From Candidatus Parcubacteria bacterium (GTDB lineage Bacteria; Patescibacteriota; Minisyncoccia; Phycocordibacterales; UBA918): a stretch of 60,603 nucleotides of DNA. A program made the position numbers and the translations under genes. The notes under the pieces are model-generated. The model was not told where the DNA came from, searched no databases, and worked only from the letters and a program-made list of their open reading frames with translations. Within the stretch, counting starts at the first letter, position 1. Every line of letters starts with the position of its first letter. Below are positions 22,845 to 58,244 of this stretch, one piece after another. The stretch covers positions 1 through 60,603 of the forward strand of contig JAASSY010000001.1 of the NCBI GenBank assembly GCA_021767645.1, in the 5' to 3' direction.

Positions 22845-24287
22845 CTACGTTTCTAAACGACTAAATAGGTTATCGGGTTTTTTGTTGTGCCTCACCGCCT
22901 CGATAATCTTATCTGCTGTATCTGGAAACAACGGAGATAGGTGGTGAGCAACTACCGCTAGCCCTTGCACTAATTCTGTGATGATGCGTTGCGCGGCTGG
23001 TTTGTCTTCTTTGACCAGCTTAAACGGTTCTGTCTCGGTAATAGTCTCGTCGAGCTCCCCCACCTTCTGCCATACGTAATCGCAGGCTGCCATAAAATCA
23101 TAGCGCTCAAGCGCGTCACGGTACGCCGAGTCAAACGGTGTAGCGGTCGGCTGTTCTACCGGACTATCAAGGTGTGTTTCAGCCATCTTCATGATCCGGG
23201 CCGTTAAGTTGCCGAGGCCATTAACCAAACCAGCGGTATACCACTCGTCCATTTTCTCCCATGTGACGTCAGAATCATCAGTTGGGTGCACGTGACGCAA
23301 GAGTACGTAGCGAGTTGCATCAGTACCATACCGTTCGATCATTTCGTACGGTGAGATCACATTGCCGAGACTCTTGCTCATCTTCTGACCACCGCTATTG
23401 ATAAAGCCATGGTAGAACACGCAGTCCGTGGCGGCGATGCCGGCACTTTTCAGCATTGCTTGCCACATAATCGACTGGAAGCGGACCTGGTCTTTCCCAG
23501 CTAGCTGCAATGTTTCGCCGTCTGCCCAGAATGTCTGAAACGTGCCGTCAGTATCCTCCGGCCAGCCGAGTGTAGAAATATAGTTTGTCAGTGCATCAAA
23601 CCAAACATACATCACATGCTCATCGTCTCCCGGCACAGGGACTCCCCAGTCCATCCGGTCTTTGCGACGAGAGATAGAAAAGTCTTCGAGTCCACCCTGG
23701 ACAAACTTCAACGCTTCTTGTCGTCGATACTCGGGTACCACTACGCCTTCGCGAGAAAGATACTCCTCGAGGTACGCTTGGTAGTTAGAGAGCTTAAAGA
23801 AGTAGTTTTCTTCCTCAATTTCTTCAGGCGTCATGTTCGGGTGGTCAGGACACCGACCATCGACTAAATCACTCTCGGTTTTAAAACTCTCACACCCGAC
23901 ACAGTAGAGGCCTTGGTACTGTTGTTTGTAGATATCTCCCGCTTTGTCGCACAGCTGCCAGATATGCTGAGCAGCCTGCTTATGATGTTCATCAGTGGTA
24001 CGAACGAAGTTATCATAGGAGAGATTGAGAGCGTCCTTGAGGCGGTTAAACTCAGCCGCAAAGTGTGCTACGTACTCAAGTCGATCCTGGCCGGCACTAT
24101 CAGCCTTTTCTGCTATTTTTTGCCCGTGCTCGTCAGTACCGGTACTGAAAAATACTTCATGACCGAAAAGACGCCAGTATCGAGCCAGCGTATCAGACTG
24201 CACTAATTCTAACGCAAACCCGACGTGTGGATCTGCGTTGACGTACGGCAAGGTAGTCGTGATGTACTTGGCTGGTTTCTCACTCAT
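22845..24287 (-). CDS. metG: Methionyl-tRNA synthetase (short form)
   Basis: YVNADPHVGF (HIGH-like), a CxxC zinc knuckle (CVGCESF..GRCPDH), and KMSKSLGN. ATG at 24287. Confidence 0.95.
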   Translation of the reverse strand: MSEKPAKYITTTLPYVNADPHVGFALELVQSDTLARYWRLFGHEVFFSTGTDEHGQKIAEKADSAGQDRLEYVAHFAAEFNRLKDALNLSYDNFVRTTDEHHKQAAQHIWQLCDKAGDIYKQQYQGLYCVGCESFKTESDLVDGRCPDHPNMTPEEIEEENYFFKLSNYQAYLEEYLSREGVVVPEYRRQEALKFVQGGLEDFSISRRKDRMDWGVPVPGDDEHVMYVWFDALTNYISTLGWPEDTDGTFQTFWADGETLQLAGKDQVRFQSIMWQAMLKSAGIAATDCVFYHGFINSGGQKMSKSLGNVISPYEMIERYGTDATRYVLLRHVHPTDDSDVTWEKMDEWYTAGLVNGLGNLTARIMKMAETHLDSPVEQPTATPFDSAYRDALERYDFMAACDYVWQKVGELDETITETEPFKLVKEDKPAAQRIITELVQGLAVVAHHLSPLFPDTADKIIEAVRHNKKPDNLFSRLET

Positions 24288-24408
24288 AGAGCTCAACTGT
24301 ACCATAGGCCGGAAGCGCCTGTCTGGTTGACAGTTTAGAAATATATTATATTTTACAGTGTAGAAGGACTCTCACAGAAATTTTTCATTTTCCAAAGGGG
24401 AAAATAAC

Positions 24409-24933
24409 ATGTTCTACAAAGACGAACGGCTCGCGCTGTTTATCGATGGGCCACACCTGCACCAAGCGGCAAAGGCGCTTGGTTTCGACATCGACTACAA
24501 GCGGCTGCGAGCAGAATTTATGCGCCGGGGTAGGCTACTGCGAGCGCTGTACTATACAGCCCTACTGGAGAACGAGATATACTCGACGATCCGGCCACTC
24601 GTCGATTGGTTGCAGTACAATGGGTTTACCCTGGTCACCAAACCGGCCAAGGAGTACGCCGACAGCCAAGGCCGACGGAAAGTCAAAGGCAGTATGGACA
24701 TCGAACTTGTGGTCGACGCCATGAAGCTTGCACCACGACTAGACCACGCGGTACTCTTCTCCGGCAATGGCGATTTTCGCCCGCTGGTGGAGAGCCTACA
24801 GCGCTCTGGCGTGCAGGTGTCGGTGGTCTCAACCATTGTGAGCCGGCCACCGATGATCTCGGATGATCTGCGTCGCCAAGCCGATAACTTCATCGAGCTG
24901 ACTGAGCTCAGTGAAGTGATCGAAGTGACGTGA
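24409..24933 (+). CDS. NYN/LabA-like domain protein (putative RNase)
   Basis: LALFIDGPHL..., MDIELVVDAM, and VLFSGNGDFRPLVESLQRSGVQV are typical of the LabA/NYN (PF01936-like) family. Confidence 0.75.
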   Translation: MFYKDERLALFIDGPHLHQAAKALGFDIDYKRLRAEFMRRGRLLRALYYTALLENEIYSTIRPLVDWLQYNGFTLVTKPAKEYADSQGRRKVKGSMDIELVVDAMKLAPRLDHAVLFSGNGDFRPLVESLQRSGVQVSVVSTIVSRPPMISDDLRRQADNFIELTELSEVIEVT

Positions 24934-24990
24934 TCGGCCGGCCGCCTCAAGCTGAACCAGATGGTACCTGATACAGCTCCAACAGAAGAC

Positions 24991-25019
24991 AAAAGCCGCG
25001 TGTACTGCGCGGCTTTTTT
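24991..25019. terminator. Bidirectional terminator
   Basis: AAAAGCCGCG-tgtactg-CGCGGCTTTTTT. Confidence 0.8.
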
Positions 25020-25022
25020 CGT

Positions 25023-26408
25023 TTAACGTACGTACGCAACTAAGTCATTGATACTCACCCGCTCCTGCTCTCCCGTGTCGCGGTTACGGACAGTGACAGT
25101 GTCTGTGTGCTCCGGAGCTTCTTCGCCGAGCGTATCAAAATCGATCACGACACAGTGCGGGGTACCGATCTCATCTTGTCGGCGGTAGCGCTTGCCGACG
25201 TTGCCGTTATCATCCCAGGCGACGTTACCAAACTCAGCTTTGAGCATGGTAAAGACGTCTCGAGCTTTCTCTACTAGTGGTGGCTTATTCTTAAGAAGTG
25301 GCGAGACCGCTACCCGGTACGGAGCGAGATGCTTTGGCAAGCGCAAGAACGTTCTCGTCTCACCGTTCATTTCGTCTTCCGTGTACGCCTCGCACAACAC
25401 CGCGGTAAACGCTCGTCCGACACCAAAGCTAGGTTCCAAAACATGTGGAATATAGCGAGTACCATCTGGTTCTATGTATTCCATAGAGACCCCACTATGC
25501 TCCATGTGTTGGCGTAAATCATGGTCTGTGCGGTAAGCAAAACCAGCGAGTTCATCAAACCCCTTCCCAGGGTAGTTGTACTCGAAGTCGATGGTGCGTT
25601 TGCTGTAGTGAGCCAGATCATTGGCTGGTACGTCGTACTCACGAATATTTTCATCCGAGAGACCAATGTGACGATGCCACGCCTGGATGTCTGCCCGCAG
25701 TTTCTCAAAATATGCTTCCCAGTCAGCCTCTTTAACAAAGTACTCAATTTCCATCTGCTCAAACTCACGCACTCGAAAAAGCCATTCGCGCGGTGCGATT
25801 TCGTTGCGAAAGGCTTTTCCTACTTGCGCGATTCCAAATGGCAGCTTCGGACTCATCGTATCAACAACGTTCTTAAAATTGACGAAAATACCTTGTGCTG
25901 TCTCTGGCCGAAGATACACCTTCCCTTCCGCACCAGCTGTCGCTCCGATGTGTGACTCGAACATAAGATTAAACTGACGAGCTGGTGAAAGCTGGTTTCC
26001 TTGTGGACTTGTAACCTTGTGTTCAGCAATGGCTGCGTCGATTTCTGCCAGCGTCATACCTTCTGCTTCCACACCAATGTCTTTTAGCAGGTGATCAGCG
26101 CGATAGCGTTCACCAGTTGTTGTATCCTCGACCAACGGGTCACAGAAGCCAGCACCGGTATGGCCAGATGCTTCCCACACCTGTGCATTCATAATAATTG
26201 AAGCGTCGAGACCATACATATCTTCCCGACTATCGACAAAAAATTTCCACCACTCCTGCTTGAGGTTGTTGTTGAGAGCTACACCAAGTGGTCCAAAATC
26301 CCACGTGCCTCGTAATCCACCATAGATTTCACTCCCCTGAAAAACAAAGCCGCGGCGTTTACAAAGCGATACAATTTTTTCCATTTTATTTTCAGTGGTG
26401 TCTGCCAT
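25023..26408 (-). CDS. glyQS: Glycyl-tRNA synthetase (alpha2 type)
   Basis: 461 aa. RGFVFQGSEIYGGLRGTWDFGPLG, class II motifs, and a C-terminal anticodon-binding domain. Confidence 0.95.
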   Translation of the reverse strand: MADTTENKMEKIVSLCKRRGFVFQGSEIYGGLRGTWDFGPLGVALNNNLKQEWWKFFVDSREDMYGLDASIIMNAQVWEASGHTGAGFCDPLVEDTTTGERYRADHLLKDIGVEAEGMTLAEIDAAIAEHKVTSPQGNQLSPARQFNLMFESHIGATAGAEGKVYLRPETAQGIFVNFKNVVDTMSPKLPFGIAQVGKAFRNEIAPREWLFRVREFEQMEIEYFVKEADWEAYFEKLRADIQAWHRHIGLSDENIREYDVPANDLAHYSKRTIDFEYNYPGKGFDELAGFAYRTDHDLRQHMEHSGVSMEYIEPDGTRYIPHVLEPSFGVGRAFTAVLCEAYTEDEMNGETRTFLRLPKHLAPYRVAVSPLLKNKPPLVEKARDVFTMLKAEFGNVAWDDNGNVGKRYRRQDEIGTPHCVVIDFDTLGEEAPEHTDTVTVRNRDTGEQERVSINDLVAYVR

Positions 26409-26444
26409 ATGTGTTTTAGTTACTGATGTGCAATTACTCTAGCA

Positions 26445-26476
26445 GAAAAGCGCCGGGAAGCGAAGCTTCCCGGCGC
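26445..26476 (-). terminator. Rho-independent terminator of 26506-28533
   Basis: GCGCCGGGAAGC-gaa-GCTTCCCGGCGC. On the - strand it is followed by TTTTCTG. Confidence 0.75.
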
Positions 26477-26505
26477 AATGAAACGATATGTAGTAACTCA
26501 ACTGT

Positions 26506-28533
26506 CTACTCAACCACTCGGCCATTTTGTTCCTCAAAGCCCGCTTCGAGTGACATCTCGGTCGTCCGGGCTGGATAATCATCACGGACAGTGGTGCCAG
26601 TGAAGTCATCTGTAGCGCGGAAACTTTGTTCATTAAGAATCACTGGCGTCTGCCCTACTTGCGTTCGACTTGGTGTTACTCCAACCTGAAACGAAACATA
26701 GGCAGTGTCGTTAGCATCCATGTTGCCGAGCGCCCACGTGATTGAACGACTGGTACTGTTGTAACTGACGAGTCCGTCACCGGTAGTCTGGTCAAGCCAG
26801 CTGACGTAGGTTGGCAATACGGCAGTCACTTCACTTTCTGATACATCGTTAGAACCATTTTCAACCATCATGGTAATTGTGTACGTTGTTTGCTCCTCAG
26901 CTTGTGGTGGGATTGGTCCGCTATCAGAAAACTGTCCACTACCGTGAGTAACGGTAGATTGAATTTCTGGCATTGAGACAACGCGCACAGCACCCGCAGC
27001 TGTACCCATCAGTGTCTCGGCTACCTGTGACTCTCGCACACGCCGTGCCCGTACGTCTACATCCATAGTCACTTCTGGTGTTTGATCAACTGCTGTGTCT
27101 GGTGTCACCACGAACGCAATCCGGGTCGAGTCGCCTGGCTGCAATTCGCTCAACTCAGGAGAATTAGACACATCCCACACAATCGTGTCACGCGCTGAGT
27201 CGTAAAAACCGTTAGGCGGACCTACCTCGAGATCAGCAATTGCGTTGCCGCCCAGCACGACATCGACTTCAATGTCATAAATAGTATCTTTCAGTGTGTT
27301 CGTAATCTCAACACTTGCGTTCACCGGCTGTCCAGGATCAACTACTTTAGTGTCGTTCACGACGTTACCCATCGAAAGAGCTACGTTTAAAAATGGCTGC
27401 TCGATGACAAACTCGGTTTGAGCAGCACCAAACACCGCTGCCATCTGATCACGATCGCGGTCATCTGGCACACCAACGGTAAAGTTCATGGCGTATTCGT
27501 CTGTTTCGTTACCGATCACCACACCGCTCACCACAATGGTAGCTGAACCCTCCGGCTCAAGATCTTCTATCAGCCAGACGTTTTCGCCAGAATATGGCCG
27601 GGGTTCAGCCGATTCAAAATCAAACCCAATCGGGTACTCAGCGCGCACAAGTACGTCAGATAACGTAGTCGGTGCATTACTGTCGATAGTAATTGCTACG
27701 TCAGTACTCTGTCCAGAAGAAATTTGCTGCAGTGCCTCAGTTGTAATGGAAACTGGTGAAGAGCTGATCTTGTACCGAAGCGGATCCGCCTCTTTCACAA
27801 AGCGGGCATTAGAACCCTCAACCCGGTACTCGATTGATACGTCAATTATCTGTTCTTCATTTTCTTCACCAAAGACTACCGCCCGAAGTGGTACGTTGAC
27901 CGTTTCACCACTAGCGATTGTATCGAGTGGTAAGCGCTCATTGAACAATTGTCGATTTTCATCACCCGCCGATACCGTACCCGGATGGTACTCGACAATC
28001 AAAATAGCTGACTGGATTGGCACGACATTGTCATTGGTAACCGCAACCTGCACTGGCATCACCTCACCTCCACCGACGGTAAACGGCCCTTCCACGGACA
28101 CTGAGATATTCTCTCCAGAGATAGTATTATTGCCAAACAGCATCAAGAAGCTCGACACTAGTAAAGCACCGACAAAGAACGCCAGGCCGAGCAGGATAAT
28201 TTTTTTACGGTACTGTTTGCGTTTAGTTGTGCCCATAGGTCGCGGTGGGGTGTTTGTGCCTGACGGCACTTGTTTGGTGACAGCAGCCGGGCGTTTGACT
28301 GAGCTACTCGACGACGCTGGAGTTGTTTCTGCTGCAGCTTGTTCTGCCTCAATCCGAGCCGCTGATTTATGTCGAGTGTTATCAGAAGACTGCTTAGTTG
28401 TCGGCCACGATGTGGGCACTTCGGTTTTCGTGTCGTTTAACTGATGGTTCTGTCGCTTCGGAACCGGATTGCCACGCTCGTAGAGTCGGCGGCGAAGTTC
28501 TTCAATATTTTCGCTGTCTTTAATACCTCCCAT
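26506..28533 (-). CDS. Large membrane-anchored extracytoplasmic protein, beta-rich repeats (hypothetical)
   Basis: 675 aa with a basic, disordered N-terminus, one TM (IILLGLAFFVGALLVSSFLMLF), then repeated beta-sandwich-like segments. Confidence 0.8.
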   Translation of the reverse strand: MGGIKDSENIEELRRRLYERGNPVPKRQNHQLNDTKTEVPTSWPTTKQSSDNTRHKSAARIEAEQAAAETTPASSSSSVKRPAAVTKQVPSGTNTPPRPMGTTKRKQYRKKIILLGLAFFVGALLVSSFLMLFGNNTISGENISVSVEGPFTVGGGEVMPVQVAVTNDNVVPIQSAILIVEYHPGTVSAGDENRQLFNERLPLDTIASGETVNVPLRAVVFGEENEEQIIDVSIEYRVEGSNARFVKEADPLRYKISSSPVSITTEALQQISSGQSTDVAITIDSNAPTTLSDVLVRAEYPIGFDFESAEPRPYSGENVWLIEDLEPEGSATIVVSGVVIGNETDEYAMNFTVGVPDDRDRDQMAAVFGAAQTEFVIEQPFLNVALSMGNVVNDTKVVDPGQPVNASVEITNTLKDTIYDIEVDVVLGGNAIADLEVGPPNGFYDSARDTIVWDVSNSPELSELQPGDSTRIAFVVTPDTAVDQTPEVTMDVDVRARRVRESQVAETLMGTAAGAVRVVSMPEIQSTVTHGSGQFSDSGPIPPQAEEQTTYTITMMVENGSNDVSESEVTAVLPTYVSWLDQTTGDGLVSYNSTSRSITWALGNMDANDTAYVSFQVGVTPSRTQVGQTPVILNEQSFRATDDFTGTTVRDDYPARTTEMSLEAGFEEQNGRVVE

Positions 28534-28551
28534 GTTCCCTAGTATACCCTA

Positions 28552-29139
28552 CTATAGCTGACTCGCAGCCTTGGCAGACACCAACTGTTGACTGATATAC
28601 GTGTCAGTTGCGCGACTCACTCCGCGCGATACCGCTGTCACTGAGGGGGCGTTTAACACTTCTTGTAGAGCTTCTGAGGAAGCTAAGTAACCAAGCTGAT
28701 GGAGGGCGCGAACTTCAAAAATAGTCAGCAACTCATCACCTTGTGACATATCCGTCAACACCGACAAGAGAGGTAGTGTGGCTACTACATCGTCAAAGAC
28801 TGACACGAGTGGTTCTTCTCCCTGCACAAAGCGGCGCAAAAAACGCACGAGTGTGACGACACTCGCTCGACCAGCACGCTGGGGTGCCCTAAGATAGGCA
28901 TTATCAATCGCCTCGACACTACCAATACGCCATCCGGCCTTGCCTTTCACAAGCGACACTCGAATGTGCGCATAGTCTTGTAGCGCAAACCGTTGCCGGC
29001 TCCGCTCTTCTCGTACACTGCGTGCCGTTGCCCACACCATACCGGCCTGCCGCGTAAACAGCAGGTAGGAACGGTCGGATGTATTGCTGTCTCGACTACC
29101 ACAAACAACAGCTTCAGTCGTGTAGGTCACATAGCCCAT
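28552..29139 (-). CDS. recO: DNA repair protein RecO-like (short)
   Basis: Starting at the ATG at 29139 (MGYVTYTTEAVV..), the N-terminal OB-like region and helical C-terminus resemble RecO. The ORF-track 5' extension overlaps rpsT and the terminator. Confidence 0.5.
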   Translation of the reverse strand: MGYVTYTTEAVVCGSRDSNTSDRSYLLFTRQAGMVWATARSVREERSRQRFALQDYAHIRVSLVKGKAGWRIGSVEAIDNAYLRAPQRAGRASVVTLVRFLRRFVQGEEPLVSVFDDVVATLPLLSVLTDMSQGDELLTIFEVRALHQLGYLASSEALQEVLNAPSVTAVSRGVSRATDTYISQQLVSAKAASQL

Positions 29140-29170
29140 AGACGTAGTATAGCAATCACCGCAGTATACA

Positions 29171-29194
29171 AAAAACCGCCAGCGGCGGTTTTTT
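29171..29194. terminator. Terminator downstream of rpsT
   Basis: AAAAACCGCC-agc-GGCGGTTTTTT. Confidence 0.8.
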
Positions 29195-29206
29195 AAGGCA
29201 ATACGC

Positions 29207-29467
29207 TTACGCGTCTTTGACAGCCTTGACGAGGCGAGACTTCTTACGAGCAGCCGTGTTTTCCTTGATAACACCGCGCTTGGCTGCCTTATCGATCGCC
29301 TTGTACGCGGTTGGCATGAGCGCTTCTGCCTCTTTTCGCTCACCAGCTGTAACGTGTTTGCGGATCTTTTTCACCACGTCATTCATGGCTCGCATACGGC
29401 GCATGTTGAACACACGCTTGCGAAGCGATGAACGATGGGCTTTTTTGGCTCCAGTAGTAATTGGCAT
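29207..29467 (-). CDS. rpsT: 30S ribosomal protein S20
   Basis: MPITTGAKKAHRSSLRKRVFN.., 86 aa starting at the ATG at 29467. Confidence 0.9.
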   Translation of the reverse strand: MPITTGAKKAHRSSLRKRVFNMRRMRAMNDVVKKIRKHVTAGERKEAEALMPTAYKAIDKAAKRGVIKENTAARKKSRLVKAVKDA

Positions 29468-29523
29468 AATTGAATACTTTCTTAAAGTGGCGCTACTATA
29501 CTGCAACTAACCTAAAAACGCAA

Positions 29524-32500
29524 CTACTCTACCACTGTCAGACTTACCGTGAAGGAATGTTCACCAACGACAACCTCACTGCCATCCGTATCTTTGTAGA
29601 CAATGGATTCAGCACCGACGGTCTGCATAATATCTGCCTTGTGAGCGTCGATTAGTGCCTGCCCTCCATCTGAAGTTTGGACCGCCAACTCTATCCGATC
29701 GTGTTGGGCTAAACCTGCTTCTTTCCGCAGCCCTTGGATGGCGCGCATCAATTCACGCGCCTCCCCTTCTGCTTGTAACGCCGCAGTTAATGTGAGGTCG
29801 AGCTCTGCGATCGACTTACCACCAAGCGACACTGTCTTGACGTTTACCTCATCGGCAATGATCTGCTGATACTCAGGTGAGACGTCACAATTCGTCGTCA
29901 GCGACGCGAGTGGCTGACGCACTTTCACACCGGCTTTCGTACGTGCTTCAAGTGCTGCTGAGACAATCTCGCGCGTCACGCTCATGGCTGAGAGTACAGC
30001 TTCATCTGCTGCAGCTGCCATTGGCCAGTCAGTGAGGTGGACGCTTTCTGGCTCAGCCTCACTGCGAACAGACCGGTATAGATGTTCGGCGTAAAACGGC
30101 ATCGCTGGTGCCATCACTTGGGCTAGCGTTTTGAGTACGTGTCGCAATGTAGCTAGTGTCGCATCGCGGTCAGCTGCGTCGCTTCCCTTCAGTCGATCAC
30201 GACTCCGGCGGAGATACCAGACCGATACGTCATCAATAAAGTCAGTGATTGGCCGAGTAGCCTTATCAAGTTCGTAGGACCGATAGCCGCCCGTGACCGC
30301 CGCGACTAGTTGGTTGAGGCGAGCCAGTACCCACTGGTCAAGGACATGGGTGGAGTTTGTCTCAGCCGCGATACTTCCGTCGGCAAACATTTCGTACATC
30401 GAGAGTACATTATGCAACCGACCGATGTTTTTCCGTTGCAGCTCCTGCACCTCTTTCTCAGAGAAATTAAGGTCTTCCCCTTTGATAATTGATGATGTCA
30501 GAAGGTAAAAACGCATCGCATCAGCCCCTTGCCGCTCAACCAGTTCGACTGGGTCTGGGTAGTTTTGTAGCGATTTACTCATCTTCCGACCGTCTTCGGC
30601 CAAGACTAAACCGTTCACAATCACGTTCTGGTACGGTGACTTACCAAAGAGTGCTGTCCCCAGCACAATCAGCGAGTAGAACCAACCCCGAGTTTGGTCA
30701 AGCCCTTCCGCGATAAAGTCAGCGGGGTAACCCTTGTTCTTCTCGGGGTTAAACGTATCGAGGTTAGCAAACGGATAATGGTTCTGGCCGTACGGCATCG
30801 AACCACTCTCAAACCAGCAATCAAACACGTCAGGAATCCGTTCGAGTTTCGTGTCACCGTCGTAGAGATCGATGTTGTCAATGTATGGTCGATGGAAGTC
30901 GAGTTCGTAGTCGTCGTTGTGAGGGTACCGAGTAAACTGGATTGACCGTACCTCACCATTGCCGAACTGCTTACCTTCGTTATCACAATTAAATTCGTTC
31001 GCGTATGGTTCACCAGTAGACACATGTTCCAGAGCGGTTAAAGGACTATTGTGTCCCACCACCAGGATCGTCTCATTCTGGTGTGTCGCCTCTGTGTCAA
31101 AGAGAAAATCTCCGACGCGCCGACGCACATCAAGCCACGACTCACCCTGCTCGGTGCGTGCTTGGTACCACTCCGCACCCGTTACCACTTCACTACGGTA
31201 GGCAGCGCCAGCTTTGCCTTCATACTCAGGCAGCTGAATTTCTTGTATCCGGTCGTCATACACTACAGCCGACTCGTCCAAACCGAGTTCGGTACGGATA
31301 ATAGCAGCCGTGGCTTTGGTGCGCTCAAACGGTGAACAGATGATCTTCGTAATACCGTACTGTTTCAACTCAGTCACGGCTGCAAGCACTTGTTCTTTAC
31401 CAGCTGCAGTAAGTGGATTAGCCTCGGTGATATCAGTTTGTACAGTGTCAGTAGCGTTGCTTTCACTTTCACCGTGCCGCATCAGTAGGTACTGGTTGTT
31501 AGGGTTCGGCACATACGCTTGCAGCTCCTCCAGTGAACCAAAGATTTTTACGTCCTTGGTCGCTGGGTTGCACCAGACTGGCAGTGGTGCTCCCCAGTAG
31601 CGCTGTCGACTGACCGCCCAGTCACGCGCACCTTCAAGCCACTTCCCAAACCGCGCTCGTCCGACGTGTTCCGGCACCCAGTTGATACGGTTATTCTCAG
31701 CTACGAGCTCATCTTTGATGTCGGTCACTTTTACGAACCAGCTGGTCGTCGCGTAGTTTAAAAGTGGTGTGTCACAGCGCCAACAGTGCGGGTAGCTGTG
31801 GGTGATGTTCTCCTTACGTAACAACTTACCCGCTGCCTTAAGGGCTTTGACAATCTCGATGTCAGCGTCGAGGTGGGTCACCCCGGCGTTCTCGTCGTCT
31901 TTTGGCTTCACCAGCTGACCGGCAAAGTCGGTCACTATGTCCATGAAGTGTCCACTCTCACTGACATGGTGCACAATCGGGATGTGGTTCTCTTGCGCCA
32001 GCTGCATATCCTCATCACCGTAGGCAGGTGCCAAGTGGACCGCTCCGGTACCCTCATCCCCCAGTTCGACGTAGTCGGCGTGGTAGATGGTCCAAGCGTT
32101 CTCCTTATGTTCGAAGTCTTGGTCTTTGAAGTACGCAAACGGCGGCTCGTACCGACGACCGACCAAGTCGCTTCCGGCTATTTCCTCCAATATCTCGTAA
32201 CTGTCAGTAGCGAGTTGTTCCAGGCGATCTTTTGCTAGGATGACGTTCTCGGTAGCCGCATCAGTAGTGACCGCTACTTTAACGTAGGTGTGGTCGTTAT
32301 GAACCGCGGCGGCCATGTTGCCCGGTAACGTCCAGGGTGTGGTAGTCCAGACTAAGAGGCTGGTGTCTGTCACCTCCCCTTGTTCGTCCAGGAGCGGCAG
32401 CTTAACCGTCACGGCAATATCTTTGGTGTCTTTGTAGCCCTGGTTTACCTCAAAGTTTGAAAGCGTCGTACCACAGCGCGGGCAGAGGTGCATCGACTTG

Positions 32501-33042
32501 AAGCCTTCATACACCAGACCTTTGTTATCAAGCTCCTTAAAGACCCACCACACGCTTTCCGTGTAGCTACTGTCCATGGTCTTGTAGTCGTTCTCCATAT
32601 CGACGAAGCGACCCATCCGGGGAACAATTTGCTCCCAGTCGTCAGCGTAGCGCATGACGGTACCACGGGCTTTTTCGTTGAAATTTTGGATACCGTATTC
32701 CTCAATGTCCCGCTTGGTCGCAAGGCCGAGCTCCTTCTCAATCAGATTCTCGAGTGGCAAGCCGTGGCAATCCCACCCCCACCGTCGCGGGACGTGATAA
32801 CCATTCATCGTCCAGAAGCGCGGTATCGCGTCTTTGATGGTGCCGGCTAAAATGTGGCCGTAGTGTGGCAAGCCGGTGGCAAACGGTGGACCGTCGTAGA
32901 AAATAAACTCTCCGTTTGGGGCGTCTTTCTCCAGTGTTTTATGAAAAATATTGTGCTCGCGCCAAAACTCGAGAATGGCTGCTTCGCGCTTAGCGACGTC
33001 ACTGGTCTGCACCTCTGGTGCTGTTTGGTTGGTTGTATTCAT
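29524..33042 (-). CDS. ileS: Isoleucyl-tRNA synthetase (type 2) carrying an inserted histidine-phosphatase-like domain
   Basis: PPFATGLPHYGHIL, the CP1 editing domain, and KMSKSLQN. The likely start is MNTTNQ at 33042. About 205 aa with RHGESESN, CSPFERTKATA, GESWLDVRRRV and VVGHNSP are inserted between GSLEELQ and LDFHRPYID. Confidence 0.95.
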   Translation of the reverse strand: MNTTNQTAPEVQTSDVAKREAAILEFWREHNIFHKTLEKDAPNGEFIFYDGPPFATGLPHYGHILAGTIKDAIPRFWTMNGYHVPRRWGWDCHGLPLENLIEKELGLATKRDIEEYGIQNFNEKARGTVMRYADDWEQIVPRMGRFVDMENDYKTMDSSYTESVWWVFKELDNKGLVYEGFKSMHLCPRCGTTLSNFEVNQGYKDTKDIAVTVKLPLLDEQGEVTDTSLLVWTTTPWTLPGNMAAAVHNDHTYVKVAVTTDAATENVILAKDRLEQLATDSYEILEEIAGSDLVGRRYEPPFAYFKDQDFEHKENAWTIYHADYVELGDEGTGAVHLAPAYGDEDMQLAQENHIPIVHHVSESGHFMDIVTDFAGQLVKPKDDENAGVTHLDADIEIVKALKAAGKLLRKENITHSYPHCWRCDTPLLNYATTSWFVKVTDIKDELVAENNRINWVPEHVGRARFGKWLEGARDWAVSRQRYWGAPLPVWCNPATKDVKIFGSLEELQAYVPNPNNQYLLMRHGESESNATDTVQTDITEANPLTAAGKEQVLAAVTELKQYGITKIICSPFERTKATAAIIRTELGLDESAVVYDDRIQEIQLPEYEGKAGAAYRSEVVTGAEWYQARTEQGESWLDVRRRVGDFLFDTEATHQNETILVVGHNSPLTALEHVSTGEPYANEFNCDNEGKQFGNGEVRSIQFTRYPHNDDYELDFHRPYIDNIDLYDGDTKLERIPDVFDCWFESGSMPYGQNHYPFANLDTFNPEKNKGYPADFIAEGLDQTRGWFYSLIVLGTALFGKSPYQNVIVNGLVLAEDGRKMSKSLQNYPDPVELVERQGADAMRFYLLTSSIIKGEDLNFSEKEVQELQRKNIGRLHNVLSMYEMFADGSIAAETNSTHVLDQWVLARLNQLVAAVTGGYRSYELDKATRPITDFIDDVSVWYLRRSRDRLKGSDAADRDATLATLRHVLKTLAQVMAPAMPFYAEHLYRSVRSEAEPESVHLTDWPMAAAADEAVLSAMSVTREIVSAALEARTKAGVKVRQPLASLTTNCDVSPEYQQIIADEVNVKTVSLGGKSIAELDLTLTAALQAEGEARELMRAIQGLRKEAGLAQHDRIELAVQTSDGGQALIDAHKADIMQTVGAESIVYKDTDGSEVVVGEHSFTVSLTVVE

Positions 33043-33132
33043 ATAGGGTTGTTGTATATCAGACAATAATTGAGCGGCTGCTCTCGTACGCGTATCAGGC
33101 GTACTGAACCATCCTAGCACTATTTTGTAATA

Positions 33133-33159
33133 TGAAAAGCGGCGCATACAGCGCCGCTT
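33133..33159 (-). terminator. Rho-independent terminator of 33163-33474
   Basis: AAGCGGCGC-ataca-GCGCCGCTT. On the - strand it is followed by TTTTCA. Confidence 0.7.
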
Positions 33160-33162
33160 ATT

Positions 33163-33474
33163 CTAATCAGAATGATCCGCAACCGTGGATTGTATATGCA
33201 TAAGTGTTTTGAAAAACAGCACCGCCAACAATCCAAACTGCAAAAACACAACCAGCGCTCTATGCTCTTCCATGGCTAGCAGCAAACAACCAGCTAACAT
33301 TGGGACGAATATAGCGTTGCCGTAGTGCGCGGCCACTAAAGTAGTTGGAATAGACCATTCATCTTCCAACTCCACTACTTGTGCAAACATCCACACAGCA
33401 CACCATGTTAGCCCCAAAATAATTATCCAAAGAACTGTCAAGCCTACCGTGAAAGCTATTTCATGAACAGTCAT
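33163..33474 (-). CDS. Small membrane protein (103 aa)
   Basis: MTVHEIAFTVGLTVLWIIILG.. AGGAG lies 7 nt upstream of the ATG at 33474. Three TM-like segments. Confidence 0.55.
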   Translation of the reverse strand: MTVHEIAFTVGLTVLWIIILGLTWCAVWMFAQVVELEDEWSIPTTLVAAHYGNAIFVPMLAGCLLLAMEEHRALVVFLQFGLLAVLFFKTLMHIQSTVADHSD

Positions 33475-33574
33475 TTTTTTCTCCTTGTGTCTACCCTGCC
33501 TGAAACATAACAAACTTAACTTATATATGCACGTAAAGCAAAACCGCGCCTGAATAGATCAAGCGCGGCAGTAA

Positions 33575-33847
33575 TCATTTGTCGTTATTGACCACCAGCT
33601 GCAGGCTGGTTGGTGATGTTATTTCACCCCGATGCTCAGGTGGCCACGTTGCCAGTGTTGGCTCACTCAGGCAATCTGTCAACGCCTCCCGATAATCAGC
33701 CTCTGTTGGGAGTGGTTCTGGCGGGGCCGAAAAGAGTTTGCGCCAGCACCTGACGGAGATCATTTCTCCAAAGAAGATGGTGCTCCAAAACCAATCCCAG
33801 ACAATAAAAGTAAAGCATACAAGCAGTAGTGTAAACGTGGTCGTCAT
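33575..33847 (-). CDS. Small membrane protein (90 aa)
   Basis: N-terminal TM (FTLLLVCFTFIVWDWFW). The start overlaps the stop of the upstream ORF in an ATGA arrangement. Confidence 0.5.
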   Translation of the reverse strand: MTTTFTLLLVCFTFIVWDWFWSTIFFGEMISVRCWRKLFSAPPEPLPTEADYREALTDCLSEPTLATWPPEHRGEITSPTSLQLVVNNDK

Positions 33848-34035
33848 TTTGACCCTCCTTGTTTGAGTATTGTTTGCGCTTCCTGATCGCCACGAAACGC
33901 TAATTGTTCGAGCGCTCGCTGATCTTTTTTAAGCTTCTCTGCATCGTACTGCTGAAGCCAGCGTCGCACGAAATACACCGCAACTCCAACTACCGGCACT
34001 AAAGCTGAGATGGCAAACCAGCTCCATGTCCACAT
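33844..34035 (-). CDS. Small membrane protein (63 aa)
   Basis: MWTWSWFAISALVPVVGVAVYFV.. Translationally coupled to 33575-33847. Confidence 0.5.
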   Translation of the reverse strand: MWTWSWFAISALVPVVGVAVYFVRRWLQQYDAEKLKKDQRALEQLAFRGDQEAQTILKQGGSK

Positions 34036-34149
34036 AGTGCGTCTCCTCTCGTTTGTACTTTTTTCCTGTCACTATTTAATAACAAATATATAAAAAGTCA
34101 ATACTATTGGGTAATGTCTAAACACTTCTGGCACTTTTTATCATCAAGC

Positions 34150-34362
34150 AGGCTCACATCTACCGAAACTGTCCTGAGGACCTTCACCACAGGCACTGGT
34201 ACTTCATAGTCGCTTTGCTCCTTGAATTACTGGCGCACAACTATGCCCTGCGGGCATTTGTTCATAGATCGATACCAGTTTGGTATATGTTCGCTTGGAA
34301 GGCTCACATCTACCGAAACTGTCCTGAGGACCTTCACAATATGCCCTGCGGGCATTTGTTCA
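34150..34362. repeat. Composite direct repeats (R1 38 nt x2, R2 23 nt x2) downstream of argS
   Basis: R1 aggctcacatctaccgaaactgtcctgaggaccttcac occurs at 34150-34187 and 34300-34337. R2 tatgccctgcgggcatttgttca occurs at 34242-34264 and 34340-34362. R2 contains the hairpin ATGCCC-tgc-GGGCAT. Confidence 0.85.
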
Positions 34363-34364
34363 GG

Positions 34365-36065
34365 TCACATCTGGTCTGGAGCTTCGATGCCAAGTACCCA
34401 CAAGCCGTTTTTGAGCGTCTGCCCCACAGCGGCTGCGAGTGTAGCTTTGTATGGTGCGTATTGATCGGACGGATCAGCGATCTTTTCCTGTGCGTACAGC
34501 GTGTTAAAGGCACTGGCAAGCTCAGTGAGAAAGGTAGCTACCTTATGTGGAGCTCGTTCCACGAGCGCGTCCGCTATCACTTCAGGGTAGCGGTACAACA
34601 GTCGCTCAACAGCATACGGCGCTTCGGGCACTGTCTCAGTACCTGACATAACACCAACTGCAGCCGCTTTTTCTAAGACTGAGTTAATACGGGCATGCGT
34701 GTACTGCAAGTACGGTCCAGACGCCCCTTCAAACGACAGAGCCTGCTCCTTATCAAACACTGTGTCTTGTAAAATACTGCCCTTGAGTGTGGTGTACTTA
34801 ATCGCTCCGATAGCTATCTGCTCAGCCAAAGCTCGATCAACCTGCCCCACTTCACCAGTTTGGGCAGTAGCCGCTATCCGGGTAGCAGCAGCGTCGGTAA
34901 TTTCAGCAATGAAATCATTGGCAGCTATGACGTCTCCGGTTCGCGAGGACATCTTACCGGTGCTCAAGCGCACCATACCGTGGCCAATGTGCTCTGTCTT
35001 GGCTGCCAACTCAGGATAAACAAAGCTCATTGCCTGAAGCAGCACTTTAAAGTACTCGTTGATTTCGTTGGCGGTCGAAACAACCGAATGGTCATACGCA
35101 CCCAGTGCGTCTTCCTTCATTTTTGCGAGCGCCAGCTCTTTCGCTTCGTAGGTAGGTAACCCTTCCGAATTGATAAACACCCGGGTATGCAGGCCGTACT
35201 CTTCACCCACGAAAACCTTAGCGCCGTCACTGTCGGTAAAAATAGCGTCATGCTGCAACACGAGCTCGCGCCCCTTCGGACCAGCTTCGCTTTCAAAGAA
35301 GTACGCGTCAAACTGGGTACCCAGCGTCTCGTAAATAGTTTCAAAGTACGCCAGCGACACTTCACGACCCTTGTCGTACAACGCATTAATCGTCTCATCG
35401 TCTCGTTCGTAGACGTGCTTGTTGATGGCTTTGATGGCCGCAACTGTCGAGGCCTCACCGGCTTTGTATGCGGTCGCACCATACGCGTAGGCTTGCCCTA
35501 AATCACCAGCCGAGATATCGGCTTTCTCACCAAGGCCAAGCTGCTGCACCCCCCATAATGTCATCGCGACGTGCATACCGACGTCGCCTTGATAATTCAC
35601 CTTTTTGGTGTCAGCACCGTTGGCAATAAATAATCGGGCCAGACTCTCACCCACTACGTTGGTAAACAAGTGGCCGATATGAAACTCTTTAAACGGGTTT
35701 GGGTCAGTGTACTCAACCAGTACCCGCTTACCAGCCCAGCTCTCGTTTGTACCCCATGAAGAACCTTGCTCACCTACGGCAGTAACTTGCGACACGAAAA
35801 AATCGCGGTGTAAGTGAACGTTAACAAAACCAGGGCCAGCTACTTCAACACGCGCCACAGCCGGGACAGCCGCTGTCACCAGTGGTGTCAGCTGCGCTGC
35901 CACCTCTCTTGGTGACTGACCGAGTTGTTTAGCCGCTGCCATAGCAGCATTGGTAGCGTAGTCGCCGTGAGTCAAATCTGTCGGGTGCTCCACAACAAAG
36001 GTAACGTCGGTAGCACCCAAGGTGCCTAACGCTTGCTGAATCGCAGTAGTAATCGTGTCTCGCAT
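34365..36065 (-). CDS. argS: Arginyl-tRNA synthetase
   Basis: 566 aa. EYTDPNPFKEFHIGHL (HIGH), MSSRTG (the KMSKS equivalent), and a DALR anticodon-binding C-terminus. Confidence 0.95.
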   Translation of the reverse strand: MRDTITTAIQQALGTLGATDVTFVVEHPTDLTHGDYATNAAMAAAKQLGQSPREVAAQLTPLVTAAVPAVARVEVAGPGFVNVHLHRDFFVSQVTAVGEQGSSWGTNESWAGKRVLVEYTDPNPFKEFHIGHLFTNVVGESLARLFIANGADTKKVNYQGDVGMHVAMTLWGVQQLGLGEKADISAGDLGQAYAYGATAYKAGEASTVAAIKAINKHVYERDDETINALYDKGREVSLAYFETIYETLGTQFDAYFFESEAGPKGRELVLQHDAIFTDSDGAKVFVGEEYGLHTRVFINSEGLPTYEAKELALAKMKEDALGAYDHSVVSTANEINEYFKVLLQAMSFVYPELAAKTEHIGHGMVRLSTGKMSSRTGDVIAANDFIAEITDAAATRIAATAQTGEVGQVDRALAEQIAIGAIKYTTLKGSILQDTVFDKEQALSFEGASGPYLQYTHARINSVLEKAAAVGVMSGTETVPEAPYAVERLLYRYPEVIADALVERAPHKVATFLTELASAFNTLYAQEKIADPSDQYAPYKATLAAAVGQTLKNGLWVLGIEAPDQM

Positions 36066-36133
36066 AGACCTGCACTATAGCAAATTATTATTGTAATAAC
36101 AGCGCTCCCGAGGCCGGTCCGCGGGTAACCACC

Positions 36134-52990: not shown

Positions 52991-53080
52991 CTACCAAATC
53001 AGATGCGCGATAAAGAAGCCTAGGCCAGCACCAAAGAGAAATACGAAGAACAATGTTACCTTGAGTCCCTCATCATCCAT
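52991..53080 (-). CDS. Possible 29-aa hydrophobic peptide (not in ORF track)
   Basis: Hand translation gives MDDEGLKVTLFFVFLFGAGLGFFIAHLIW. No clear SD, so this is weak. Confidence 0.2.
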   Translation of the reverse strand: MDDEGLKVTLFFVFLFGAGLGFFIAHLIW

Positions 53081-54845
53081 TGGTTGCAGTATACCGCACT
53101 GAAACAAAAGACTCGACTTTTACGTGAAAAACTAGTATAAATATGGCCACTTCATAGCGAAGTATGGCGGCTATGGTGTAGAGGTAACACGCAAGTTTGT
53201 GGCACTTGAATCTCGGGTTCAATTCCCGGTAGCCGCCCCAAGTGAGAATCAGCTCTGCAAAACGTGCATTTCGCGTTGCAGTGTCTAGGTTTTTGTCCAG
53301 TTCGAGCCGATTGTATTCGGCTTCTAGCTCTGGATACGCTTTTTCTATTGGAACAAACCAATCGTTAGGTGTTATAAGGACTTTTTTGTCTTTCAACGTA
53401 AAGTTCTGACCAAGTGCTGAAAATATCTCTCGTTTTTCTTGAATGCTTCCGTGCACGAATGTTGCCCGTGCGTGCCGAGCAAAGTTGAAGGTCCGCTCGC
53501 TGAGTTCTAACCACGTGGCTGCCCTATTCTCAGTAGAGTTGAGTTGCAGCTTCAGTTTACCGAGCTTCTTCTTCAAGTCACTACGCTGTGTCTTGAACTC
53601 TTCGTCATCAATTAGATTCCGGTAGCGCATCTTTGTTAGTGTGTCTAATTCATTTTGTGTTTGGTTGTATGCCCTCTGCTGTTGTTCGTAGACCTTGGTC
53701 CGTGCATCAATCTCCTTGTCGTTTTCCTTGTTAATAATCTCCAAGGCCCACTCCTGAAACTTCGGGAGAATGGTGTAACGTTCGAGTTCAACATCTACCT
53801 GACGCTCAAACTCTTCCAGAGTAACTGGCTTCTGCCCACAGCTACATTTACCAGAAGCATCCTTCTTCTTTTTTGTGCAGTGATAGTATGCGTAGGTTTT
53901 TAATTCTCCAGTTTTCTTAACAATCTTTTGCTTGGCTGAATATGTGCACATACCACCGCATTCACCACAAATAACCATACCTGTAAAGGCAGATTCATGG
54001 ACTTGATTTCGAGGCTTCCCTTTGCGACCAAGTATGACCTGGGCTTTGTCATATTCTTCCACAGTAATCATCGGTTTATGGTTACCGTTTTCGTATACGG
54101 TACCTGACCATTCAAACATCCCCGTGTAAAAGATGTTGGTAAAGATGCGATATAACGAACTTTCTGCAATTGGTCCTCCTCCAGACTTCTTAAACTTAGG
54201 CGTCCTGAAACCCCATTCTTCATTCGCTATCTTACGGATTTTAGGGACGGTATAGTTACCAGATAGCAGCATGTCCCACATTTTACGAACCATATCCCAG
54301 CGTTCTTCGTCCGGGTAGATTTCATTCACAATTTTATCGTTGTAATACCCAAGCGGAGCCCGTGAAGGTAACCACCCACTATTTGCTTTGCTTTCCATGC
54401 CACGCCGCGAAGTCTTGGCTAGATCACGTACAAATTGGTTCGCCATTGCTCCCTCTACATGAAACAGCAATACATTGTCTTCTGGGTAGTATGCACGGTC
54501 ATAGGTTTGAATGACTTTAATTACTTCTGTCTGCAACATCCAGGCAACAGTTCCCTGGTCAACCGGATTGCGGAATAAACGGTTAAGGTGCCATGTCAAA
54601 ATACCGTCTGCTTCACCCGCTTCAATGCGAGACAGCATTTCATAAAAGATTGTTCTCACTTGGGGTTGTTTGGCAGACTTTGATTCCTGCAGCACATCCA
54701 CAATTTGATACCCCATTTGTGCAGCACGAGATTTGTAGTAAGCAATCTGGTCTGGAATAGACTGCAACTGCTTATCAGACGATTCATCCGAAGATCGTCG
54801 TGCATAGAGGAATACTTTTAACTTCTTGTTTTGCATTTTATTCAT
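53073..54845 (-). CDS. Large serine recombinase (integrase)
   Basis: Resolvase catalytic N-terminus (VFLYARRSSDESSDKQLQSIPDQ), recombinase domain, zinc ribbon (CGECGG..YYHCTKKKK..CSCG), and coiled coil. The last ~56 codons run antisense through tRNA-His. Confidence 0.9.
   Translation of the reverse strand: MNKMQNKKLKVFLYARRSSDESSDKQLQSIPDQIAYYKSRAAQMGYQIVDVLQESKSAKQPQVRTIFYEMLSRIEAGEADGILTWHLNRLFRNPVDQGTVAWMLQTEVIKVIQTYDRAYYPEDNVLLFHVEGAMANQFVRDLAKTSRRGMESKANSGWLPSRAPLGYYNDKIVNEIYPDEERWDMVRKMWDMLLSGNYTVPKIRKIANEEWGFRTPKFKKSGGGPIAESSLYRIFTNIFYTGMFEWSGTVYENGNHKPMITVEEYDKAQVILGRKGKPRNQVHESAFTGMVICGECGGMCTYSAKQKIVKKTGELKTYAYYHCTKKKKDASGKCSCGQKPVTLEEFERQVDVELERYTILPKFQEWALEIINKENDKEIDARTKVYEQQQRAYNQTQNELDTLTKMRYRNLIDDEEFKTQRSDLKKKLGKLKLQLNSTENRAATWLELSERTFNFARHARATFVHGSIQEKREIFSALGQNFTLKDKKVLITPNDWFVPIEKAYPELEAEYNRLELDKNLDTATRNARFAELILTWGGYRELNPRFKCHKLACYLYTIAAILRYEVAIFILVFHVKVESFVSVRYTATNG
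53166..53240 (+). tRNA. tRNA-His (GTG)
   Basis: Manual cloverleaf: G-1 plus acceptor GCGGCTA/TAGCCGC, D arm GTGT-agaggta-ACAC, anticodon arm CAAGT-ttGTGgc-ACTTG, T arm TCGGG-ttcaatt-CCCGG, discriminator C, encoded CCA. The G-1:C73 pair is the tRNA-His hallmark. Confidence 0.9.
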
Positions 54846-54856
54846 TGTACTTTAAT

Positions 54857-58006: not shown

Positions 58007-58244
58007 TCACAAAGCCCTGGCTGTCACCGTGCAGTCTGGGCTTTTGTGGTGAAGGAGGGTTTTATTACAAAACAATTAAATACACACGTGACCTAAGGTC
58101 GTTCAGGCTATGGTCCAAAACCGTGGAAGACAGAAAACCCGTTATCAGGGCGTCTTCCACGTTGCATGGGGAAACTCATGTAGAGGCTTCGGCCTTCCTG
58201 GTAGCGGGCTTTGTGTATTTGCTCCTACCATAACGTAAAACACT

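Follow-up and report, generated by a model that had tools for sequence, protein, structure and literature searches.

A histidine phosphatase-type domain nested in the CP3 loop of isoleucyl-tRNA synthetase from Patescibacteria

Why would an essential aminoacyl-tRNA synthetase (aaRS) carry a complete phosphatase domain inside one of its loops? The question is raised by ileS, the gene for isoleucyl-tRNA synthetase (IleRS), in a stretch of 60,603 nucleotides from a Candidatus Parcubacteria bacterium (GenBank assembly GCA_021767645.1, contig JAASSY010000001.1, positions 1 to 60,603; hereafter the window, meaning this whole stretch). A preliminary description of the window, made from its letters alone, reported a complete histidine phosphatase domain within the IleRS reading frame, and sequence, conservation and predicted fold now bear this out. 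Few enzymes have been studied as thoroughly as the aminoacyl-tRNA synthetases, whose accessory domains in bacteria are almost always tRNA-binding or editing modules. On balance we lean, by a modest degree, towards the view that the connective peptide 3 (CP3) loop of this synthetase contains a phosphomonoesterase of the PhoE/PspA/CobC type, able to fold independently and competent in catalysis, which would act as a functional partner of IleRS. The parts of the gene are as follows, with amino acids (aa) numbered along the longest open reading frame (ORF).

29524..33042, minus strand: ileS, IleRS with nested phosphatase, from M36 to the stop, 1172 aa
31519..33042, minus strand: IleRS N-terminal part, with the first Rossmann half, CP core, CP1 editing, CP2, the CP2-3 linker ARDWAVSRQRYWG, the CP3 beta-hairpin and the 'GSLEEL' helix
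30901..31518, minus strand: nested His_Phos_1 domain, aa 544-749, from Pfam, alignment and AlphaFold2 (AF2)
29524..30900, minus strand: IleRS C-terminal part, with the remaining CP3 (DFHRPYID...DVFDCWFESG), the second Rossmann half, the anticodon-binding domain and DUF5915

The host of the insert is an intact type-2 housekeeping IleRS of the Paceibacteria/'Parcubacteria' type. Its longest frame in the ORF list runs uninterrupted from 33147 to 29524 on the minus strand (1207 aa), and the encoded protein scores 879 bits with the NCBIfam ileS equivalog TIGR00392 (cut-off 621) and matches IleRS structures in the PDB with E-values as low as 6e-214. The KMSKS signature and the editing motifs WTTTPWTLPGN and GTGAVHLAPAYGDED are all present, so that the earlier statement of a continuous frame with intact IleRS flanks stands. 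According to Pfam, tRNA-synt_1 is recovered in two halves, the first of which (aa 58-544) covers profile positions 2-265, with His_Phos_1 between them and Anticodon_1 (aa 937-1080) and DUF5915 behind. The NCBIfam models of the exceptional enzymes MupB (672 vs. 1900) and MupA (665 vs. 1900) were not reached, nor was that of ileS_w_GNAT (NF040702, 318 vs. 1999). The landmarks used below are these.

33137..33159, minus strand: terminator-like hairpin AAGCGGCGC-tgtat-GCGCCGCTT with a T-rich tail, 3' of an upstream small ORF, read from the sequence
32854-32865, minus strand: HYGH, aa 95-98, the HIGH-type motif of IleRS
30901..30924, minus strand: C-terminal junction motif P-H-N-D-D-Y-E-L, running directly into 'DFHRPYID'
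aa 750-757, minus strand: DFHRPYID, the IleRS motif that resumes after the insert
30571-30585, minus strand: KMSKS, aa 855-859

The true start of ileS is probably M36 at 33042, in which case the database call (P0121, 1207 aa) is 35 codons too long. The first in-frame ATG (33145-33147) sits within the loop and stem of the hairpin, just past the stop of the upstream 116-aa ORF, and homologues begin at M36 (33042) by alignment consensus. The ATG at 33147 is therefore an unlikely start codon.

Where in the synthetase does the domain sit? The preliminary description placed it in the catalytic core, and here we have to correct it: the phosphatase comes after the CP3 beta-hairpin and the 'GSLEEL' helix and before 'DFHRPYID', and is thus nested in the CP3 subdomain rather than in the Rossmann core. 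Alignment to type-2 enzymes locates the point of insertion. Against solved IleRS structures the query runs to residue 543-549 and restarts at 750, while the targets move on by about 8 residues, so that some 205 aa stand in place of about 8 linker residues. The N-terminal part matches residues 11-490 of human and yeast IleRS, and in human IARS1 (9w01) residues 53-543 of the query correspond to 14-489 of the chain and residues 750-1082 to 498-850. The boundaries first given for the insert, 30904-31518 (aa 544-748), were nearly exact and have been redrawn to 30901-31518 (aa 544-749).

In Saccharomyces cerevisiae IleRS, CP2 comprises residues 420-458 and CP3 residues 459-526, and the CP2-3 linker 453-ARDWNVSRNRYWG-465 helps build the pocket for tRNA-CCA and reveromycin (PMC7955072); its counterpart in the window enzyme is the linker ARDWAVSRQRYWG listed above. 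CP3 topology varies among the IleRS of Candida, Thermus and Staphylococcus (PMC7191050), and the subdomain has been catalogued as a module of 25-77 aa with no assigned function (PMC10810186). The junctions of the insert are short and conserved, with the pattern '(K)SGN.Y..MRHG' at the N-terminal end and 'F.P.PHND.YEL' at the C-terminal end; in the latter, alignment A2 has an invariant P199, with conservation of at least 90% at H200 and N201. Both the insertion point and the junction pattern are identical in all nested lineages, the deepest included. The composition profile displays no GC break across the insert. An intein or mobile element was also considered; Pfam reports His_Phos_1 alone in the insert, and there is no compositional discontinuity.

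A fusion of this kind invites the suspicion that an assembly chimera or a frameshift has joined a phosphatase gene to ileS. Beyond its prior, this explanation can draw on broken versions of the gene on some short contigs (L081), and we give it virtually no credence. In a scan of one genome per GTDB species, at least 80 species-level loci matched the insert together with the flanking IleRS segments, with both junctions covered in 80 of 80, and the closed chromosome CP060229.1 is among the genomes with the fusion. All 80 listed loci belong to Patescibacteria, including Kaiser-, Nomura-, Adler-, Vogel-, Taylor-, Yonath- and Lloydbacteria as well as Paceibacterota. The best 120 full-length database matches (62-75% identity) have the PF00133 plus PF00300 architecture without exception (120/120), UniRef100_A0A2H0UGN8 ('Isoleucine--tRNA ligase, Ca. 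Kaiserbacteria') being a public example, and an insert-only HMMER search of 1.84 billion representatives found IleRS flanks in 97 of the 150 best proteins. Because at least 80 independent genomes, along with hundreds of metagenomic proteins, have the same junctions in a continuous frame with no compositional break across the insert, we consider a chimera or frameshift to be excluded.

The broken versions are of some consequence for annotation, since fragments of fusion genes can pass as free-standing homologues. On one short contig (L081:1-1362) the fusion gene is interrupted by stops or frameshifts, and its phosphatase is called as a separate protein of 219 aa (P0271). P0271 and P0272, which at first appeared as the closest free-standing relatives of the insert, were discarded as pieces of this broken gene. 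Such fragments bear database labels like 'histidine phosphatase family protein' or 'broad specificity phosphatase PhoE'. Some fusion proteins also have implausible source labels (P0021, 'Candidatus Methylomirabilis sp.'; P0148, 'Candidatus Azotimanducaceae'), and the title 'uncultured Candidatus Saccharibacteria' is given to many TPA assemblies, some of which group with sequences labelled Kaiserbacteria or Paceibacterota in a neighbour-joining tree. These odd labels are probably binning or labelling issues.

What kind of phosphatase has been inserted? Profile score, catalytic residue set and predicted fold all place it in branch 1 of the histidine phosphatase superfamily. Pfam His_Phos_1 (PF00300) matches aa 554-717 with an E-value of 1.6e-28 (100.2 bits vs. 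a cut-off of 21.7), which settles the profile check that the preliminary description had proposed. Its proposal to model the domain likewise gave a clear result: the insert alone folds confidently in AF2, with a predicted local distance difference test score (pLDDT) of 90.8 and a predicted template-modelling score (pTM) of 0.89, and in the full-length model, too, the insert is well folded (pLDDT ~90-96). Foldseek aligned the insert model to 6S2Q, 1H2E, 4IJ5 and 4QIH with probability 1.00 and template-modelling (TM) scores of 0.70-0.76, the best structural neighbours being mycobacterial GpgP-type hydrolases, PhoE, PspA, CobC and the riboflavin-pathway HFP. Profile searches of the PDB agree with these neighbours, as PspA (4IJ5, 3e-28), PhoE (1EBB/1H2E, 8e-27), CobC and TIGAR were matched over nearly the whole domain.

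The earlier label, PGAM-like, does not survive this comparison. The dPGM mutase structures match the insert profile only at positions ~9-118, that is, in the N-terminal half, and the insert stays below the dPGM equivalog cut-offs (NF038349 dPGM_arch, 81 vs. 225 bits; GpmB, 51 vs. 261). We have accordingly rejected a mutase identity. The equivalogs of PspA (55 vs. 350) and CobC (TIGR03162, 65 vs. 163; PRK15004, 45 vs. 250) were not reached either. Judged by profile matches and predicted fold, then, the insert is a small capped member of branch 1 of the phosphatase type (PhoE/PspA/CobC-like) and not a mutase. Each of the motifs quoted in the preliminary description was found in the translation; together with the presumed catalytic residues they are placed as follows.

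31456..31479, minus strand: RHGESESN, aa 557-564, with Arg557, the putative nucleophile His558 and Asn564 of the phosphate pocket
aa 604-616, minus strand: motif CSPFERTKATAAI, present in the translation
31321..31323, minus strand: Arg609, second phosphate-binding Arg, in the S-x-x-x-R-T motif, kept in 66/66 orthologues
31240..31242, minus strand: Glu636, presumed general acid, in the D-R-x-x-E motif, kept in 66/66 orthologues
aa 641-645, minus strand: EYEGK, present in the translation
aa 668-682, minus strand: motif GESWLDVRRRVGDFL, present in the translation
aa 694-703, minus strand: ILVVGHNSPL, present in the translation
31051..31053, minus strand: His699, second catalytic His, kept in 66/66 orthologues

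Is the active site maintained? We compared 66 full-length orthologues, each from a different species. R557, H558, S605, R609, E636, R677 and H699 are kept in all 66, N564 in 65 and E669 in 64, and the residues of the RHGESESN motif are invariant in alignments A1, A2 and A3. In the profile match, Glu636 falls opposite the glutamate of the RLRE motif in PhoE and PspA. The insert is 201-213 aa long in 65 of the 66 orthologues, and its median identity to the window protein is 36%, compared with 65% for the IleRS body. These alignments indicate that the phosphatase active site is under purifying selection, even though, outside these positions, the insert has diverged at about double the rate of the body. 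The divergence of insert and body is correlated (Mantel r=0.58, with 0 of 999 permutations as high), which is consistent with vertical co-inheritance of the two.

A further view of the domain comes from lineages in which it is not nested. A single-protein scan for free-standing relatives gave 8 loci. Two split-state loci, L085 and L087, are on related metagenomic contigs. At L085:6001-9367 the genes are ordered ArgRS, a free-standing phosphatase (P0303), an insert-less IleRS of 931 aa, RecO, a DUF11-like protein and a class II aaRS, which is the order of the window. P0303, a protein of 189 aa, aligns with the insert along its whole length at 31% identity (E=3e-29) and keeps the full catalytic set; its stop lies 1 nt from the ileS ATG. 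CP3 of the adjoining IleRS is plain ('GSIKELEKLS-TDLHKHFID'), and outside the insert this enzyme shares 49% identity with that of the window. The layout at L087:5001-8320 is the same, with overlapping ORFs and a phosphatase 62% identical to P0303. The next-closest relatives of P0303 are nested IleRS inserts (L088-L090, 36-42% identity), and it is thus about as close to them as nested inserts are to that of the window (median 36%).

When IleRS bodies are compared in neighbour-joining trees, the two split-state enzymes branch at separate places within the insert-bearing radiation (59 of 60 and 43 of 60 bootstraps), and the nested forms were monophyletic to the exclusion of the split forms in 0 of 60 bootstraps. 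Since the split forms nest within the insert-bearing tree and the junctions are the same in all nested lineages, the most economical reading of these sequences would be that the domain was inserted once, in an ancient event, and later split off by fission at least twice. Whichever the direction of change, the domain is kept as a separate protein with an intact catalytic set, and this argues against a purely structural role. The preliminary description had left room for a purely structural insertion; we disfavour it, given the invariant catalytic residues and the separate gene beside ileS in two lineages.

The same site has been used in a second synthetase. Proteins resembling valyl-tRNA synthetase (ValRS) were among the best matches to the insert, and a dedicated search found one to four His_Phos_1 copies in 74 of 121 ValRS relatives, those with names being labelled Peregrinibacteria or Gracilibacteria (examples are P0315, P0385, P0397, P0398, P0413, P0485 and P0242). 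In single-copy ValRS the domain is preceded by the 'ISRQ..WG..IP' hairpin and followed by 'DTLDTWFSS', and on the PF00133 profile the insertion falls at position ~267, as compared with ~265 in the window IleRS. By this alignment the ValRS insert is at the same CP3 site as the IleRS insert. The junction sequences of the two differ, and the IleRS inserts score a median of 129 bits with free-standing phosphatases vs. 95 bits with ValRS inserts, a comparison in which the free-standing set is biased toward IleRS-like members. Because the IleRS inserts are nearer to free-standing phosphatases than to ValRS inserts, these scores suggest that IleRS and ValRS captured the domain independently; a shared origin was set aside as unsupported by this best-hit analysis, with the same bias in the comparison set. 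The full catalytic set is present in 52 of 87 ValRS copies.

Several other architectures were seen along the way. P0315 and P0385 have an additional His_Phos_1 copy upstream of the 'ISRQ' motif of ValRS. Variants of IleRS with two to three His_Phos_1 copies also occur (P0380, 1419 aa; P0365, 1468 aa; P0317; P0350), and the second copy of P0380 (aa 867-1053), between the KMSKS region and the anticodon-binding domain, marks a second insertion site. In P0313 (L082:977-2140; one cluster seen) a Sua5/YciO/YrdC protein has a C-terminal His_Phos_1 domain that belongs to the subfamily of the insert and scores 195 bits with its hidden Markov model; the Sua5/YrdC partner is of the threonylcarbamoyl-AMP synthase family, another enzyme of tRNA metabolism that turns ATP into an acyl-adenylate. 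P0107, a fragment of ileS_w_GNAT type, has its GNAT domain just upstream of the CP2 helices ('INWIPDHI...ARDWSITRNRFWG'), a permissive site unlike CP3.

How, then, might the nested domain work? By homology with PhoE and PspA, His558 would be the nucleophile and a phosphomonoester would be hydrolysed through a phospho-His558 intermediate, with Arg557, Asn564, Arg609 and His699 forming the phosphate pocket and Glu636 acting as general acid. The phosphatase would be held beside the CP2-3 linker that lines the pocket for tRNA-CCA and adenylate. The preliminary description had put forward Ap4A, alarmones and a phosphate or cyclic phosphate at the tRNA end as candidate substrates. Our best guess is that the substrate would be a small phosphorylated nucleotide or metabolite met or made during aminoacylation; a small molecule is favoured because the insert keeps the cap region of ~30 residues that is typical of small-molecule members.

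This proposal of a catalytic partner should be interpreted with some caution, as a number of points weigh against it. Phosphatase activity is inferred from sequence and predicted fold, the nearest characterized relatives of the insert are ordinary metabolic phosphatases, and no branch-1 enzyme with an aaRS substrate or a tRNA end as its target is known to us. With a pTM of 0.49 and a poorly modelled Rossmann core, the full-length AF2 model is too weak for interdomain geometry and does not show where the phosphatase stands in relation to the synthetic site. At least one of the seven core positions, mostly the Glu or the second His, is missing in 35 of the 87 ValRS copies, so that catalysis is not always retained in the analogous ValRS system, and no phosphatase gene lies within 5 kb of three insert-less ValRS relatives. 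The free-standing relative P0288 is not adjacent to ileS. The adjacency in the split state, moreover, could be a relic of fission (e.g. by tandem duplication and complementary loss) rather than a product of selection for co-expression, and the IleRS-body tree is of the neighbour-joining type only, with 60 bootstrap replicates.

Some of these points would be expected if the insert were an ordinary metabolic phosphatase, acting on phosphoserine, a sugar phosphate or a nucleotide, that rides on the constitutive expression of ileS with no link to aminoacylation. This uncoupled enzyme is the main rival of a functional partnership, and we regard it as rather unlikely, though as a serious competitor. 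It accords with the identity of the closest relatives (PspA, PhoE, GpgP, CobC and the riboflavin-pathway HFP), with the capped small-molecule architecture of ~200 aa, with the location of P0288 away from ileS, and with L085 and L087, where the phosphatase clearly works as a separate protein. It leaves unexplained, however, why the same CP3 site was used in two paralogous editing synthetases, IleRS and ValRS, of different Patescibacteria classes, why tandem arrays of up to four copies exist, why the gene abuts ileS after fission in two lineages, and why the junctions are short and conserved.

The degenerate ValRS copies raise another alternative, namely that the insert is a non-catalytic pseudo-enzyme serving as a structural spacer, as a binding pad for phosphate or the tRNA backbone, or as an allosteric sensor of a phosphorylated metabolite. 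ValRS subgroups that have lost the Glu and/or the second His always keep R-H...R...R, copies in tandem resemble binding or spacer modules more than enzymes, and CP3 is a structurally plastic subdomain with no function assigned to it. In the IleRS family, however, every catalytic residue including Glu636 and His699 is kept in 66 of 66 orthologues on a background of 36% identity, and after fission the separate gene has an intact catalytic set. We therefore think a non-catalytic role improbable, and the least probable of the biological alternatives.

The remaining alternative takes the location of the domain as its starting point. CP3 comes after the CP2-3 linker lining the tRNA-CCA/reveromycin pocket, and a phosphatase beside that pocket might strip a 3'-phosphate or 3'-pyrophosphate from tRNA, including the marks left by toxSAS enzymes, and so restore chargeability. 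A CCA end that has been pyrophosphorylated is closed to aminoacylation, and toxin-antitoxin systems, antiphage defence and secreted toxSAS effectors all make use of this modification (bioRxiv 10.1101/2021.04.30.441581, PMC11559606, PMC11782079). Such a block on charging is just what an eraser at this site would relieve, and ValRS, with the domain at the same site, handles the tRNA 3' end alike. Against this stand the cap region, which points to small substrates, the seemingly narrow use of a repair confined to tRNAIle or tRNAVal, a Sua5 fusion partner that is not primarily tRNA-binding, and a full-length model too weak (pTM 0.49) for the geometry. No branch-1 histidine phosphatase is known to work on RNA ends, and none was found in the literature searched. 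An eraser in IleRS is accordingly a doubtful candidate. We attach a similarly small chance to the broader conjecture that the class Ia editing synthetases of Patescibacteria (IleRS and ValRS) carry a CP3 'eraser' of 3'-phosphate or pyrophosphate tRNA marks, or a destroyer of a phosphorylated nucleotide that blocks charging. If true, such an eraser would be a new, synthetase-embedded layer of tRNA repair or counter-defence.

How does the catalytic partner that we favour compare with known systems? The predicted fold of the insert is that of PhoE (1H2E/1EBB), PspA/iPSP1 (4IJ5), CobC (6NRU, 6E4B), GpgP Rv2419c (4PZ9/4QIH) and the mycobacterial hydrolases 6S2Q/6S2R (TM 0.70-0.76), and the insert shares with the small branch-1 phosphatases a length of ~200 aa and the catalytic set R-H-G...N...R...E...H. 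Those enzymes are free-standing, whereas the insert is nested in a loop of another enzyme, has a junction motif of its own (PxPHNDxYEL) and lacks the usual Gly after the second His. On the synthetase side, the window enzyme has all the domains and motifs of type-2 (eukaryote/archaeal-like) IleRS, but its CP3, with an enzyme domain of ~205 aa, is about four times the normal size. The ileS_w_GNAT family (NF040702) sets a precedent for an accessory enzyme domain within IleRS; the domain there is of the GNAT family and is located before the CP2 helices rather than in CP3. The ValRS of Peregrinibacteria and Gracilibacteria carry His_Phos_1 domains, too, at the topologically equivalent site, but the synthetase, the lineage and the junctions differ, and the copies are often in tandem and many are degenerate. 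A histidine phosphatase joined to a second catalytic domain is also found in the RNase H/acid phosphatase of the Rv2228c type (NF005567) and in PFK-2/FBPase-2. NF005567 matches the insert at 62 bits (aa 551-706), and FBPase-2 structures are among its PDB matches. These are, however, end-to-end fusions that involve no aaRS, whereas the window insert is nested.

The author of the preliminary description was aware of no phosphatase fused into an aaRS, and we likewise found no description of a histidine phosphatase within an aaRS in the literature searched, which covered few subscription journals, so that this absence is no proof. The architecture itself is abundant in databases and is already in UniProt and NCBI without comment. 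What is unusual is the combination of a nested second catalytic domain, its recurrence at one loop of two synthetases, and fusion and fission with a neighbouring gene. An unrelated second catalytic domain within an essential synthetase, conserved over a large part of Patescibacteria, is a pattern that points to an unrecognized partnership between a phosphatase and tRNA charging, in minimal genomes with little room for the dispensable. With one recombinant protein and its point mutants as the only requirement, it is a tractable way into Patescibacterial physiology, and it provides a natural case in which a domain was inserted at, and split from, a permissive loop, which is of use in aaRS engineering.

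The neighbourhood of ileS in the window is of a housekeeping kind, with genes for MetRS, a class II aaRS, a DUF11 protein, RecO, IleRS, ArgRS, SHMT and ThyA, and within the window there is no second His_Phos copy. Four aaRS genes lie in ~13 kb (22848-36074, minus strand), namely a MetRS-like gene (22848-24371), a class II HGTP-type gene (25026-26438), that of IleRS and that of ArgRS (34368-36074). RecO and a DUF11 surface-type protein of 675 aa are interleaved among them, and the order ArgRS-IleRS-RecO-DUF11-class II is conserved in L085. Two RNA features lie further along the window.

53167-53240, plus strand: tRNA-His (GTG), the sole tRNA gene of the window
58090-58196, plus strand: Rfam LOOT RNA (RF03000), a small RNA motif, 55.1 bits vs. 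a gathering score of 46.4

The tRNA-His gene overlaps, in antisense, the 3' end of a long stop-to-stop frame on the minus strand (53076-54851).

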